A stretch of DNA of 64,000 bases from an uncultured Spirochaetota bacterium (GTDB lineage Bacteria; Spirochaetota; Spirochaetia; SZUA-6; CAVTHK01): positions 96,001-160,000 of the forward strand of contig CAVTHK010000013.1 of assembly GCA_963734495.1 (NCBI GenBank), given 5' to 3'. Shown here in pieces: positions 55,972 to 64,000 of this stretch. Below the pieces are notes generated by a model, which saw nothing but the letters and a program-made list of their open reading frames with translations, was not told the origin of the DNA and did not search any database. Both the position numbers and the translations under genes were made by a program. Positions within the stretch are counted from its first letter, which is position 1; the number at the start of each line of letters is the position of its first letter.

Positions 55972-56310
55972 GGACAAGGAGGTCCTTGCCCGGGCGCGAC
56001 AGGCGCTTTGGCCCGGCGTACTCGCGGGGATGTCGAAGCGCCGGGCTGGAACATGCGCTTTGGCCCGCGTACTCGCGGGGGAAGTTCTTGCCCGGCACAG
56101 CCACGCGCCCTGGTCCGGCGTCTGCGCCGGAGATGGCGTTAGTGCCGGGCTGGGACAAGGAGGTCCCCGAAGGCCCAAGCCCGCGATGCGGGGTTGGGTT
56201 GCCCCCGTAGGCCCACGCGTACTCGCGTGGGGTGGCGCGACAGGCGCTTTGGCCCGGCGTACTCGCCGGGGATGTCGAAGCGCCCGGGCTGGGACACGGA
56301 CAAGGCGGCC
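55972..56310. repeat. Second cluster of GCG-TACT-CGC hairpins with a ~57-bp direct repeat
   Basis: GCGTACTCGC at 56016, 56067, 56217, 56257; GCGCGACAGGCGCTTTGGCCCGGCGTACTCGC..GGGGATGTCGAAGCGCC..GGGCTGG at ~55994 and ~56235. Confidence 0.85.
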
Positions 56311-59026: not shown

Positions 59027-60539
59027 TCACGGCGCCGGCTTGGTCTCGCTCTCCTTGTCGATGACGTCGTGGGCGCCGCCCTCGCGAAGGCTGGTGGCGG
59101 AGATCACGGTGAGGCGGGCCTTTTTCTGGAGCTCCGCGATCGTGAGGGCGCCGCAGTTGCACATCGTCGAGCGGATCTTGCGCAGCGTGAGCTCGACGTT
59201 GTCCTTGAGCTTGCCCGCGTACGGGATGTAGACGTCGACGCCCTCCTCGAACGCGAGGCGGCCCTCCGTCTCGTCGCCCTCGTCGTAGCGCTGCCAGTTG
59301 CGGGCGCGGTTCGAGCCTTCGCCCCAGTACTCCTTTACGAATCCGCCCTGCACGCGCAGCCTGCGTCCCGGCGCCTCGTCGAATCGCGCGAAGTAGCGGC
59401 CCATCATCACGAAGTCGGCGCCCATCGCCAGCGCCAGCGCGATGTGGTAGTCCAGCACGATGCCGCCGTCGGAGCAGATCGGGACATACCAGCCGGTCTC
59501 CCGGAGGTAGGCGTCGCGCTCGCGAGCCACTTCGATGACCGCCGAGGCCTGGCCGCGGCCGATTCCCTTCTGCTCGCGTGTGATGCAGATCGAGCCGCCC
59601 GCCGATGCCGACCTTGACGAAGTCCGCGCCCGCCTCGACGAGGTAGCGGAAGCCCTCGCCGTCCACGACGTTGCCGGCGCCGACCGGGAGGCCGAACTTC
59701 TCCTTGACGAACCGGATCGTCTCCGCCTGCCACTCGGAGTAGCCGTCCGAGGAGTCGATGCACAGGACGTCGACGCCCGCCTCGACCAGCGCGGGCACCC
59801 GGTCGCGGTAGTCGTGCGTGTTGATCCCGGCGCCGACGAGCAGGCGCTTTTCGGCGTCGACCAGCTCGTTCGGGTTCTGCCTTGTGCGTATCGTAGTCCT
59901 GGCGGAACACGAGGTAGCACAGGCGCTGGTGCTGGTCGATGATCGGAAGCGTGTTGAGCTTGTGCTTCCAGATGAGATCGTTGGCCTCGCTCAAGCTGAT
60001 GCCCTCGTTGCCGCAGACGAGGCGTTCGAACGGCGTCATGAGCTCGGACACCGGGCGTGTCGAGGCTCATCTTGTCGGCGCGGTAGTCGCGTCCCGTGAG
60101 GATCCCGAGGAGACGGCCGGTCGGCGTTCCGTCCTTCGTGACGGCCATGGTGGTGTGGCTCGTCCTTCGGGCGAGCGCGAGCACGTCGCGCAGGGTGTCT
60201 TCGGGCCTGATGTTGGAGTCGCTGCGCACGAAGCCGGCCTTGAAGCTCTTGACGCGCTGCACCATGTCCGCCTGCGCCTCGATGGGCTGCGACTGGTAGA
60301 TGAACGCGAGGCCGCCGCAGCGGGCCAGCGCGATGCGCCAGGCTGTGGTCCGAGACCGCCTGCATGATCGCCGAGGTCAGGGGCACGTTCAGGTGCAGCC
60401 GGGGTGACTCTCCCTGGCGGAACCTCGCGAGCGGAGTCGCGAGCGCGACGTTCTCCGGCAGGCAGACCTTGGTGGTCAGGTTCGGGAGCAGCAGGTACTC
60501 GCTGAACGTCCTCGACACTTCCGGTGTGTACGTGGCCAT
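59027..60539 (-). CDS. guaB: IMP dehydrogenase with CBS subdomain, frameshifted
   Basis: [74 protein letters not shown]. Confidence 0.93.
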
Positions 60540-60540
60540 G

Positions 60541-61788
60541 TCACCCTCCTCCGGTCTTCGCCCGCGCGCGCTTGACGGGGGCGCCCGAGGCGCGCGGCTG
60601 CGCCCGCGCCCGCCGGCGCCCGTGGCGCGCCCGAGGCCCCCGACGCGCCGCGCAGGCTCGCGTATTTGCGCCGGATGCGCTCGAGGCTGCTCGCCACCAG
60701 CGCCTCCGCCTCGTCCACCTTGTAGCGGTCCGACGGCACCCACTGCCGCGTCCTCAGGCGATAGGGCCGCAGCCCTGCCCGCATCTCGTCCAGCGTGCAG
60801 AACAGCGAGTCGGGCTCCGGCCTGCCGACCCATGCCTCGCCGAGGTTGCGCTCCAGCGCCGCGAACCAGTGCACGTACTGCTCGATGCGATCCTCGTCGA
60901 AGTAGCCGACGGGCCCGAGCAGCTCGAGCAGCCGCTGCAGCTTCTCGCTGCGCAGGTAGCGGTGGTAGTGGGCGACGTACAGGCTCTCGGAGACGAAGAG
61001 CGGGCTCCCCCGGACCGACAGGCCCTTGCGCCGGACCGTGGAGCCGGTCTGCACGATCTCGATGCCCACGCCCTGGCCGGCGCCGAGCACCTCGTCCTCG
61101 ACGTTCGCGCAGGGCACCGTGTTCATCCCCGGGAAACAGCTTGCGGACGAGCTCGTCGTAGCGGCCCTTGACGAAGACCGGCATCCGGTGCCTGGCGAGC
61201 CACCGGAAGTCCAGGTCCGCGCGCTGGAGGCCCGGCCCCGAGATGAGAAAGAAGCCGACAAAGTCGCTGATCTCGCGGCCCGCCTGCGCGTCGTGCGCCG
61301 ACAGCCCGGCCGAGCCGGCGATGCGCAGGTCGGTGTCGCCGACGAGGTTGTAGTTGTAGAGGCCCCACTTCGTCACGCGGCTCGGGTCGCGGAGGAACGG
61401 CTGGCACATGGCCAGCAGCTCGTCCAGCCCGACCACGGCAAAGTCGGCCTCGTCGAGCCTGATCAGCGACGAGCCGTTGTGAGGCTCGTCGCCTTCGAGC
61501 CGCAGGCGGATGCCCTGAACGTCGATGTCCATGCCGACGAACCCGATGCGATAGGGACGGTCCGGCCTCTTGCGGTCGGGCGCGATTCCCGACGTACGGG
61601 CAGTCCGCGGCAGCGAGCGCGCGGCTCGCCTCCGCGGGGTCCGCCGATGCCAGATCGCGAGCGCCGGCCACGACCTCCAGGACGCGCTCGATCCCGCGCG
61701 GATCCGTCGCCACTCGCGCGAAGCGCCGCAGGACGCGGACGAACGAGCGCCCCCAGCGCGGGATCACGCACGCGACGTCATGCGCCAC
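60541..61788 (-). CDS. Divergent ATP phosphoribosyltransferase (HisG)-like protein with a C-terminal extension, frameshifted; end approximate
   Basis: CVIPRWGRS (cf. IALPKGRL), EADFAVVGLDEL (cf. ADLGIVGKDVL), VE-x12-EIVQTGSTVRRKGL (cf. VE-x12-DIVETGTTLRENGL), SESLYVAH; AGGAGG SD before GTG. Confidence 0.65.
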
Positions 61789-62368
61789 CGAGCGCCTCCT
61801 TGAGGTACGGCCGCGTCGCCATCTCGGCGAGGTCGAGCTCGGCGAAGAGATCAAGGGGAAGGCCGGCGTCCGAGAGGACACGCCCGAGCAGGCCGAACAC
61901 GTTCTCCGCGATGGGCTCCGAAGCCGCGGAATGCGCCTGCTCCCCGACGGAAACCGCGCGCGCGCCCGCTTTCGCGCCGCTGCGCAGCGCGGCCTCCAGG
62001 TCGCCCGCGTCCGGCACCCGACCCGCCGCGAGCTCGCTCACGATCCACCAGTAGGAGACCTGGCTCGCTTCGAGCAGCAGGTCGGCCAGCCGGACCTCGA
62101 GCCCGCGCTCCGCGAGCAGGCCTCGGGCCAGGCCGCTCTTGTCCGCAAGGTGAGAGTGGGTGCCGCCGAGCACGGCGACCAGCTCGCCGATTTCGTCGCG
62201 CAGCCGGGCCAGCGGGAGCGACGCGTCCGAGGAGCGGATCAATGCAGCCGTGCGTGATTTCTCTGTCGGGACCGAACGAGATAGAGCCTGGTATGCTGAC
62301 ACGAGGCGCTGAAGGGCCGCCATCGGAAAGGAATCTGCAGCGGGGGACGATGCGAGCTCGGCACCCAT
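61778..62368 (-). CDS. HisE-like (all-alpha NTP pyrophosphohydrolase) protein
   Basis: KSRTAALI..LARLRDEIGELVAV...LLLEASQVSYWWIV (cf. HisE SYTA.L..KVGEEAVE...EAADLLYHLLV). Confidence 0.55.
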   Translation of the reverse strand: MGAELASSPAADSFPMAALQRLVSAYQALSRSVPTEKSRTAALIRSSDASLPLARLRDEIGELVAVLGGTHSHLADKSGLARGLLAERGLEVRLADLLLEASQVSYWWIVSELAAGRVPDAGDLEAALRSGAKAGARAVSVGEQAHSAASEPIAENVFGLLGRVLSDAGLPLDLFAELDLAEMATRPYLKEALGGA

Positions 62369-62484
62369 AGAAGCGAATACCACGGGAGCACGGAGTCAGT
62401 CAAGACAACCACGGCCCCCCGGCCCCCCAAAGGCACCCGCGCCGTGGACAAACGCCCGACGCGGCGATACCCTCGGGCAACCTT

Positions 62485-63340
62485 ATGAGCACCGTCGCCG
62501 TGCCCGCCGCGCTGCTCTGGCTCGTGCCCTTTGCCGCGGGGCTGATCGCCCTGCTCATGCTCGTGGCCTTCCGGCGGCGGCAGGCGGAGCTCCGCCTGCC
62601 GTCGGACCTCGTCGCGCGGATCGCGGAGATCGACACGCTCGCCCGCAACCTGAACGATCTGTCGCGGACGCTGCTCCTGCCCCAGAGCCGCGGCGCGCTC
62701 GGCGAGACCATGCTCGCCGCGGTCCTCTCGAACTGGCTGCCGCGCCGCTCCTTCGAGCTGCAGCATGCCTTTCGCGACGGCGGCCGGGTCGACGCCGTCG
62801 TGCGCCTGGCCGACCGCCTGGTCCCGATCGACTCCAAGTTCCCGCTCGAGGCGCTCCGCGAAGAGCTCCTCGGCCCGCAGGCGCAATCGCCGGATCTCGC
62901 CCGAAGCGCGCCGCGCGATCTCCCGCACGATCGCCGACATCGCCGCCCGCTACATCCGGCCGGCCGAAGGCACCTACGACTTCGCCCTGATGTACGTGGC
63001 GTCCGAGGCGGTCTTCTACCACGCGTTCGTGGCGGCAGACGGCGCGGACGAGCTCGCGCGCGCCGCGCTTTCCGCGCGCGTCATCCCCGTGAGCCCTTCG
63101 AGCCTCTTCCTCTATCTTCAGACCGTCGCGCACGGATTGCGCGGGTTTCTTCTCTCCGCGGACCAGAGGCGCCTCGCGGTGCTGCTCGAGGAGCTGCAGC
63201 GCGACCTGACGGCCCTGGCGCGCGCCCACGCGACGCTCGGCGGCCACCTCCGCAACGCCGCCCGCTCCTACGAGGAGAGCCTCGCCCCGTTAGGCGGCCT
63301 CGACCGGGCGGTGAGCCGGATCACGCGGCCGGAGGACTGA
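62485..63340 (+). CDS. rmuC: DNA recombination protein RmuC family, short form, frameshifted
   Basis: QSRGALGETML, VDAVVRL, PIDSKFPL, YIRPAEGTYDFALMYVASEAV, VIPVSPSSL. Confidence 0.85.
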
Positions 63341-63362
63341 GTGCGGCGCGCCCCGCGGCGCC

Positions 63363-64000
63363 CTAACGGCCGGCCGCGATGCGGTCCAGGGACGCGAGCA
63401 GGGGCAGGTGGTCGGAGTAGCGCCACACGAGCGCCCGGTCCTTGAGCGGGAATCCGGTGCGCGGGTCCAGCATGAACGAGTGGCGGACCGCGGCGAACGA
63501 CCCCTTCCTGTACGCGAGCCCCGCCCGGTCGAAGAGCCCCGCGGACAGCAGCAGGTGATCCGGTGTCTGCCACGCGCCCCGGTAGACGGCGCTTCCCCGC
63601 GCGGACGGCGGGAGCTCGTTCCAGGCGTCGTACAGCGACACGCGGCCGCCGTCGACGCCGGCCCGCGCGGGCGCATCCACGCCGACCAGCGGCCGCTCGC
63701 GCGCCGCTGCAGCCAGCTCCTCCACGCTCTCGTTCAGGTCCCCGGCCACCACCACGTCGCGGCCGGGCTTGTCCGCCAGCAGGCCGCGCACCCGGCGCGC
63801 CACGGCCCGGGCCGCGGCGTCGCGGCCGGGCTGCGTGATGCCTTGACCTTCCATCCTTGATTTCCAGTGAACGACGAGCAGGACGAGGGGCGCGCCATGG
63901 CAGTCGACCTCGACCTCGAGAGCCGGCCGGAGCTTCTCGCCCGCCCACTCGCCGCAGTCGAGCGTTCCCGCACGGAGTATCGGCAGCCGGCTCGCCACGC
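63363..64000 (-). CDS. Endonuclease/exonuclease/phosphatase-family protein, 5' partial
   Basis: VVHWKSR, VVAGDLN, PDHLLLS, YSDHLPL. Confidence 0.85.
   Translation of the reverse strand, partial: VASRLPILRAGTLDCGEWAGEKLRPALEVEVDCHGAPLVLLVVHWKSRMEGQGITQPGRDAAARAVARRVRGLLADKPGRDVVVAGDLNESVEELAAAARERPLVGVDAPARAGVDGGRVSLYDAWNELPPSARGSAVYRGAWQTPDHLLLSAGLFDRAGLAYRKGSFAAVRHSFMLDPRTGFPLKDRALVWRYSDHLPLLASLDRIAAGR

Follow-up and report, generated by a model that had tools for sequence, protein, structure and literature searches.

A putative non-canonical HisE-HisG gene pair upstream of guaB in an uncultured spirochaete

What are two genes of unnamed function doing directly upstream of guaB, the gene for IMP dehydrogenase, in an uncultured spirochaete? 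The stretch of DNA that raises the question, called the window here, is 64,000 nucleotides long and covers positions 96001 to 160000 of contig C13 in the source assembly (G000), which has 18 contigs and 5.38 Mb at a completeness of 83% and a contamination of 4.7%. A six-frame reading places three closely packed genes on its minus strand: gene A, gene B and guaB. HisG converts ATP and phosphoribosyl pyrophosphate (PRPP) into phosphoribosyl-ATP (PR-ATP), and HisE converts PR-ATP into phosphoribosyl-AMP (PR-AMP), the first two steps of histidine synthesis. A first-pass annotation had called A HisE-like and B HisG-like, and had offered two readings of the trio: as its headline, a new purine-nucleotide or histidine-purine module serving IMP dehydrogenase, and as the alternative, a diverged entry to histidine synthesis. 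We consider it likely that A and B encode a non-canonical HisE and HisG for these first two steps and lie beside a housekeeping guaB. That the three genes make up a new purine-nucleotide module seems improbable to us.

Most of the analysis used the intact proteins of G004, a genome from another family of the same order, in which B (L008:841-1983) has 380 amino acids. Two other genomes recur below: G001, from the same genus as G000, and G048, from the Fibrobacterota. We built an AlphaFold2 model of B from an alignment of 32 sequences, whose strong conservation shows in about 90 columns without any variation. The model (predicted local distance difference test score, pLDDT, 86.8; predicted template modelling score 0.87) has the two-domain, periplasmic-binding-protein-like fold of HisG. 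At E ≤ 0.001, a Foldseek search of the PDB gave 298 matches, of which the best 30 were all ATP phosphoribosyltransferases. The top match was 6czl_C (E = 1.9e-9), the E values of the matches listed ran from 1.9e-9 to 7e-7, and target-normalised template modelling (TM) scores reached 0.70, with short-form HisG.

The PRPP-binding loop of HisG has the signature D-[LIV]-x-x-[ST]-G-x-T-[LM]. When B was compared by hhalign with six canonical HisG proteins of relatives (160 columns, P = 6.4e-4, 27.8% probability), the GxD motif region and this loop were aligned, the loop reading E-I-V-Q-S-G-S-T in B and D-I-V-E-T-G-S-T in the canonical proteins. Across the 32 sequences the B loop is E-I-V-Q-S/T-G-S-T-V/I, with E243, Q246, G248 and T250 invariant and a Glu in place of the Asp. 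The HisG-like character that had been proposed for B was thus borne out by both the structural matches and the loop. We also found a family for it. Among the best 120 of 298 homologues returned by a word-index search, the source names, where there are any, read "hypothetical", and for most there is a precomputed assignment to PF25936, "HisG_halo", which sits on homologues of 45 to 95% identity to B. In the nearest ESM Atlas cluster, 49% of the members carry PF25936, and the automatic name is [quoted passage not shown] Through these homologues, B can be assigned provisionally to PF25936. Pfam 38.1 thereby already marks the family of B as HisG-like. The first-pass annotation had expected automated annotation to label A and B hypothetical; this is correct, though Pfam does hold this HisG-type family for B.

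The phyletic distribution of B carries the functional argument. A scan of species-representative genomes found 77 B loci, in SAR324, in Caldilineaceae, in the large sulfur bacteria Thiomargarita, Thioploca, Marithrix and Parabeggiatoa, and also in uncultured Bacillota, Fibrobacterota, Myxococcales and others. We surveyed 47 B-bearing genomes from outside the spirochaetes, mostly those whose loci had longer flanks. Canonical HisG (PF01634) was present in 5 of the 47 and absent from 42, HisD was present in 44, and a strong canonical HisE (E ≤ 1e-14) was present in 39. For comparison, 38 of 41 spirochaete relatives have PF01634, as do all 14 control genomes. From the gammaproteobacterial order that contains the Marithrix genome we drew 41 genomes evenly; 13 had B and the other 28 had PF01634, none having both and none having neither. 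This split may reflect a single displacement event, because related genomes are not independent; the replacement pattern recurs in several phyla. A class-level sample around a Caldilineaceae genome had B in 1 of 61 genomes, a sampling too wide to be telling. Where HisE and HisD are present, PR-ATP must come from somewhere, and B is the sole HisG-fold candidate in these genomes, which points to B as the ATP phosphoribosyltransferase. The distribution expected of such an enzyme is seen for the B family as a whole, with G001 and G004 in the spirochaete clade having both genes, and it supports the view that B takes the place of canonical HisG in most of its carriers.

Gene A shows its relationship in the company that its family keeps. 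The word-index search found five relatives of A; searching 1.84 billion representatives exhaustively with a profile yielded 68 A-family proteins at E ≤ 1e-3. A Pfam scan of 69 family sequences identified an N-terminal PRA-CH (HisI) domain in 17, a weak PRA-PH domain (PF01503; best E = 1.9e-4) in 2 and a fusion to a class I/II aminotransferase in 1, and in a smaller scan of A relatives 8 of 10 had the PRA-CH domain. In the HisI fusions the A-like domain lies behind PRA-CH, at about residues 140 to 330, and the source names, where given, cover the HisI part alone. A PRA-CH domain followed by an A domain is the architecture of bifunctional HisIE, which argues for A as a HisE-type domain. In two metagenomic proteins, P0154 and P0191 (574 and 588 amino acids), an A-like domain lies ahead of a class I/II aminotransferase domain; this aminotransferase is possibly HisC, in which case it would represent a second type of fusion between the A domain and a histidine-pathway enzyme.

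By hhalign, the 69-sequence A profile matched canonical HisE at 87.8% probability (P = 3.3e-6), and a narrow profile of 7 sequences matched it at 34.7% (P = 4.1e-4). The motifs S-x-T, R-L-x-E-E-x-x-E and L-L-E-x-S-Q-V-x-Y-W of A align with the matching HisE helices. The N-terminal half of A spans the whole HisE domain and keeps the EExxE helix; beyond this, A has a G-x-H-x-H insertion and, as its C-terminal half, a conserved helical part. E44, E47 and E85 are invariant across the 69 sequences, and H56, H58 and D161 are nearly so. An AlphaFold2 model of A (pLDDT 89.4) is all-helical, with nine helices. HisE, MazG and the dimeric dUTPases reportedly form one all-alpha nucleoside triphosphate pyrophosphohydrolase superfamily, a grouping said to go back to Moroz et al. 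in 2005. As far as sequence comparison can tell, A is most likely an enlarged and very diverged relative of HisE, and the HisE-like label that it had first been given stands on the hhalign match and the PRA-CH fusions.

We then asked where A and canonical HisE occur. When 40 relatives were searched with a fragment of B, the gene turned up in two, G001 and G004, and A was present in 3 of 41 spirochaete genomes, exactly the three that have B. In G048, the last 38 residues of A stand at the start of a contig and B comes next, with no guaB after it. A strong canonical HisE was absent from all four A-bearing genomes (E = 3.8e-4 in G000, 2.5e-4 in G001 and 1.2e-6 in G048, with no match in G004). It was also absent from 14 of 21 relatives, 11 of which lack A as well. 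A wider A profile run against these 21 relatives and 5 B-bearing genomes without a strong HisE recovered no more members of the A family.

The 11 relatives without A (G002, G003, G006, G009-G014, G016 and G018) have a canonical hisG and a monofunctional hisI, and no strong canonical hisE. In them we saw either a weak PRA-PH match (E = 1e-4 to 1e-6) in frames of 270 to 320 amino acids or no match. Their PR-ATP pyrophosphatase may be of the MazG type, as in Desulfovibrio.

Several observations weigh against reading A and B as the histidine-pathway enzymes, and they begin with sequence similarity. On B, PF01634 scored 13.2 to 13.7 bits (cut-off 25.5) with a match to the final third of the model, and a hidden Markov model of the B family found no HisG among the PDB sequences. 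NCBIfam gave no match for B, Pfam HisG_C gave no match in it, and a whole-genome PF01634 search does not recover it; the kinship of B with HisG is visible mainly in structure and motifs. Similarly, A had no match at E ≤ 1 in Pfam, including PF01503 and MazG. The HisE-domain model TIGR03188 reached E = 0.0064 and 16.7 bits on A against a cut-off of 42.7, and the A profile found no HisE among the PDB sequences. None of 500 Foldseek comparisons of the A model reached E ≤ 0.001. The best TM scores, all non-significant, were to dimeric dUTPases (0.45 and 0.37, the 0.45 match at E = 1.4), with the MazG-like DR2231 at 0.24. Moreover, the second HisE metal motif, ExxD, is ExxQ in A, with Q88 nearly invariant. 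Finally, phmmer searches with HisD, HisA/F, HisI, HisE and HisG queries found no his gene within 6 kb of B at any of the 77 loci, so that gene context lends the reading no operon support.

Genomes that have both types of gene raise a further difficulty for the same interpretation. G001, G004 and G048 also carry a canonical hisG, which in G001 and G004 lies beside hisI, so B is not needed there as the only ATP phosphoribosyltransferase; G047, G049, G074 and G075 likewise have both B and canonical HisG. In the 83%-complete genome G000, we found neither canonical hisG nor hisI, and that level of completeness means that a full histidine pathway cannot be shown for it. The hisI-hisG operon of G001 has a counterpart in G000 on one flank only (C10:306.8-308.7 kb), and the neighbouring genes differ. 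With that broken synteny and that completeness, a deletion of hisI-hisG from G000 is indistinguishable from an assembly gap. Whether separate canonical hisG and hisE genes exist, a point raised by the first-pass annotation, therefore has a mixed answer: G000 yielded no canonical hisG or hisI and a weak HisE, and G001 and G004 carry a canonical hisI-hisG pair. As a second HisG beside the canonical one, B in the spirochaete clade may be redundant, differently regulated or specialised.

The identity of the third gene is clear. PF00478 matched the pieces of guaB in the window at E = 2.4e-50 and 2e-18, and the catalytic loop G-S-I-C-I-T-R-E is readable in them. The intact G004 orthologue scored 810.5 bits with NF005493 (cut-off 585) and has a CBS match. 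Since the linked guaB is the only strong IMP dehydrogenase gene in G001 and in G004, we regard it as a housekeeping gene. In G000, a second IMP dehydrogenase gene of canonical type, frameshifted too, lies within the terminal ~50 kb of contig C9 (~375000-424061). The G+C content of this tail is 0.49 to 0.60, against 0.62 to 0.73 for the preceding stretch, and the tail probably stems from a chimeric join or from foreign DNA and not from this organism.

How general is the linkage between A-B and guaB? In G004 the trio is uninterrupted, with A at 186-851, B at 841-1983 and guaB from 2106, leaving 122 nt between B and guaB. In the two genomes of the same genus, G000 and G001, the B stop and the guaB start are 1 to 13 nt apart, and this close abutment makes co-transcription of A, B and guaB likely there; in G001 the trio is split across two contig ends. 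Beyond the window, guaB lies near B at 2 of the 77 related loci, both of them in spirochaetes. The Fibrobacterota contig with A and B is one of the 75 loci without guaB; it gave no IMP dehydrogenase match, and the next open reading frame after B runs the opposite way. Four relatives that lack A-B have different sets of genes upstream of guaB. The rarity of guaB near B and the varied genes upstream of guaB elsewhere suggest that the linkage is a clade-specific gene order and not a property of a module. The first-pass annotation had named a lack of linkage to guaB in related genomes as grounds for abandoning its headline, and outside the small spirochaete clade that is what we found. Its headline of a module for IMP dehydrogenase gained no support from these results, nor from the status of guaB as the only strong IMP dehydrogenase gene; its alternative, a diverged entry to histidine synthesis, gained from the replacement of HisG by B in most carriers and from the four A genomes without a strong HisE.

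The other neighbours of B vary by lineage across the 77 loci: an acyl-CoA dehydrogenase and a nucleoside phosphorylase in Caldilineaceae and a MurD-like ligase in Bacillota. In 21 SAR324-type loci (L031, L034 and 19 more), a convergent gene for GTP cyclohydrolase I lies directly 3' of B, which looks like synteny within one lineage and not a functional link. Purine-related neighbours had been entertained as a sign of a purine function of B, an idea that was dropped once the complementarity with HisG emerged.

As assembled, B and guaB are broken by single-nucleotide frame changes. Those in B, located by comparison with P0011, an intact close homologue of 408 amino acids, lie near 61580, 61130 and 60600 (frames -2, -3, -1 and -2), and the four in guaB lie near 60335, 60053, 59880 and 59598. 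Seven such changes within 2.8 kb might suggest that the locus is decaying and that B and guaB are pseudogenes, but we find this very hard to credit. The coding sequence between the shifts is 88 to 98% identical to intact homologues (for B, to P0011 over the in-frame pieces), and guaB is the sole strong IMP dehydrogenase gene of the relatives G001 and G004. Other genes of the 18-contig, 83%-complete G000 assembly are broken in the same way. In addition, contigs of four mutually independent runs from wetland or peat have exactly one base fewer at 59598-59601, 59882, 60334, 61127/61134 and 61591, that is, at 5 of the 7 shift sites. Because these contigs lack the bases, the seven shifts are best explained as extra bases in the assembly or the strain and not as decay across the lineage; judging by the sequences compared, assembly error seems the likely cause, or at most a change private to the strain. 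The shares of the sequencing runs were all ≤0.14, and no habitat reading was drawn from them. Once corrected against P0011, B is readable throughout and ends in ...KTGGG-TGA at 60543-60541; the guaB ATG follows at 60539-60537, one base further, so that the first-pass annotation was right to have the HisG-like gene end at the guaB start.

Two other explanations concern function. In spirochaetes that have kept canonical HisG, A-B could be a repurposed module that makes some other N-phosphoribosylated purine nucleotide and thereby feeds, drains or regulates the step from IMP to xanthosine monophosphate (XMP) catalysed by the adjacent IMP dehydrogenase. The coexistence of B with canonical hisG in G001, G004 and G048 is what such a module would lead one to expect, as is the A-B-guaB order in three genomes of two families with its short B-guaB spacing in G000 and G001. 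Nevertheless, the 32-sequence alignment, which includes lineages with B only and lineages with B plus HisG, shows no visible split in the active site, the PRPP loop being among its invariant columns. The relatives of A are fused to HisI and none to a purine enzyme, the spacing widens to 122 nt in G004, nearly all related B loci lack guaB (that of the Fibrobacterota included), and guaB has a housekeeping role of its own. We give repurposing a low probability. A related idea, that A-B in the lineages with hisI-hisG (the spirochaetes and the Fibrobacterota genome) is not redundant but a specialised second entry point, strikes us as doubtful to the same degree. In one version, A and B would be a histidine-insensitive pair of ATP phosphoribosyltransferase and PR-ATP pyrophosphohydrolase, whose drain on purines and return of 5-aminoimidazole-4-carboxamide ribonucleotide (AICAR) would be transcriptionally tied to IMP dehydrogenase. 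In another, the pair would act on a different purine nucleotide and make an undescribed phosphoribosyl-purine metabolite.

The remaining alternative accepts B as the enzyme and makes A a HisE-derived subunit that regulates or scaffolds it, as HisZ serves short-form HisG. It would account for the fact that A always adjoins B, with stop and start overlapping, for the change of ExxD to ExxQ, and for a C-terminal helical half that has no HisE counterpart. Against this, in 17 of 69 family members the A domain follows HisI, the very position that the catalytic HisE domain has in HisIE. The acidic and histidine residues conserved over 69 diverse sequences are those one would look for in a metal site, no strong canonical HisE is present in the genomes with A, and most B-bearing genomes do without A. 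A non-enzymatic A is therefore unlikely in our judgement, and we continue to favour a catalytic HisE-HisG pair.

If A and B are such a pair, B would be a diverged ATP phosphoribosyltransferase that forms PR-ATP from ATP and PRPP, built from the HisG catalytic core with one insertion and its own helical C-terminal extension of ~100 residues. A would convert PR-ATP into PR-AMP and pyrophosphate, its N-terminal half corresponding to the HisE four-helix unit and its C-terminal half to an added helical module. The cassette probably entered the spirochaete clade by horizontal acquisition and landed upstream of guaB, with which it is probably now co-transcribed.

Features of the locus in the window, with positions counted from the first nucleotide of the 64,000
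Feature	Position	Strand	Description
Promoter-like string TTGACT-18-TATTCG	62403..62374	-	5 nt before the ATG of A; weak
Gene A	62368..61778	-	Enlarged, diverged HisE-like protein, 196 aa, open reading frame intact; proposed phosphoribosyl-ATP pyrophosphohydrolase
Ribosome-binding site of gene B, AAGGAGG	61801..61795	-	6 nt before GTG, within the 3' end of A; direct reading
Gene B	61788..60541	-	HisG-fold phosphoribosyltransferase, putative PF25936 "HisG_halo" family member; ~408 aa across three 1-nt frameshifts; proposed ATP phosphoribosyltransferase
Ribosome-binding site of guaB, GGAGGAGGG	60552..60544	-	Within the final codons of B; direct reading
guaB	60539..59027	-	IMP dehydrogenase, PRK07107 type; four 1-nt frameshifts; housekeeping neighbour, probably co-transcribed

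The tight coupling of the three same-strand genes described in the first-pass annotation was confirmed by the six-frame reading and by the coordinates read directly (see the table). Gene A runs from an ATG at 62368 to a TGA at 61780-61778, and a second in-frame Met, at 62326, is the start site in homologues. Gene B starts with GTG at 61788-61786, overlapping the A stop by 11 nt, and the AGGAGG Shine-Dalgarno sequence reported for it is in place. The overlap is also 11 nt in G004, and the Fibrobacterota contig has a stop-start overlap of like kind (A end at 129, B start at 125). Such an overlap suggests that A and B are translationally coupled. A promoter had been proposed ahead of A, and the string is indeed there. 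It is a poor candidate, since its -10 hexamer agrees at 3 of 6 positions, the final T being absent, and a consensus promoter scan, which called 1 site in the region, placed that site elsewhere. It had also been noted that hisI, hisA, hisF, hisH, hisB, hisC and hisD were not seen at the locus. Whole-genome searches placed hisD on contig C16 and hisA/F-type genes on C3, on C9 and at C13:208 kb, all of them outside the window (C13:96001-160000).

The G+C content of the window is 0.66 to 0.69. Divergent from gene A, a gene for an RmuC-like recombination protein occupies positions 62485-63366 on the plus strand, as one does in G001 (L088:4512-5477); in the window, its frame seemingly breaks after ~130 residues. 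At 55978-56300, between the region of a RodZ-like or LolA-like gene and a gene for a TPR protein, lies an intergenic degenerate array of ~50-nt repeat units with 70 to 95% identity and spacings of ~51, 102 and 139 nt, bounded at both ends by a 16-nt inverted repeat.

Histidine synthesis is regarded as fully mapped, and yet hisG or hisE is scored as missing in many genomes, for which auxotrophy is then suspected. In SAR324, Caldilineaceae, the large sulfur bacteria and some uncultured Bacillota, the ATP phosphoribosyltransferase appears to be the B protein, which the records call hypothetical. The A family looks like an undescribed HisE of double size, which also occurs in HisI-A fusions annotated only as HisI; no description of it was found in Pfam-A, NCBIfam or the literature searched. 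A literature search that took in missing and non-orthologous hisG and hisE likewise found no paper on HisG_halo (PF25936) or on the A family. The two families thus appear to fill "missing gene" gaps of the histidine pathway in several other bacterial groups, and recognising them would remove false gaps from metabolic reconstructions. For the window itself, the point to take away in practice is that these three genes do not form a new purine module.

The nearest known system for B is HisG itself (PF01634), in its short form (1z7m, 6fca and 5m8h) and its long form (6czl, 1h3d and 2vd3), with which B shares the two-domain fold. The PRPP loop and the GxD-x-L/E strand-helix motif align between them, and the N-terminal I-P-R-x-G-R-T of B resembles I-P-x-K-G-R-L of HisG by eye in the consensus lines. 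Unlike HisG, B has ~380 to 410 amino acids, with extra sequence inserted behind the first strand-helix and ~100 amino acids of helical extension at the C-terminus; it has no Pfam HisG_C match, falls below the PF01634 threshold and has Glu for Asp in the loop. With neither HisZ nor HisG_C evident, B would be a third architectural form of ATP phosphoribosyltransferase. The members of PF25936 "HisG_halo" that we saw, the family precomputed on most of the listed B homologues, are almost all bacterial, with the source name "hypothetical protein."

For A, the comparison is with HisE (PRA-PH; PF01503 and TIGR03188), the whole of which aligns with the N-terminal half of A, with EExxE kept. Fusion C-terminal to HisI is common to the A family and to HisE, as in HisIE. 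Unlike HisE, the A domain has ~170 and not 90 amino acids, carries the G-x-H-x-H segment and ExxQ, and stays below the curated thresholds. Substitution within this superfamily has a precedent: Price et al. (2018; PMC5764234) showed the missing HisE of Desulfovibrio to be a MazG-family protein. The DVU1186-type phosphoribosyl-ATP diphosphatase of that account belongs recognisably to the MazG family, whereas A has no Pfam MazG match at E ≤ 1; what the two would have in common is that a non-canonical member of the superfamily fills the HisE step.

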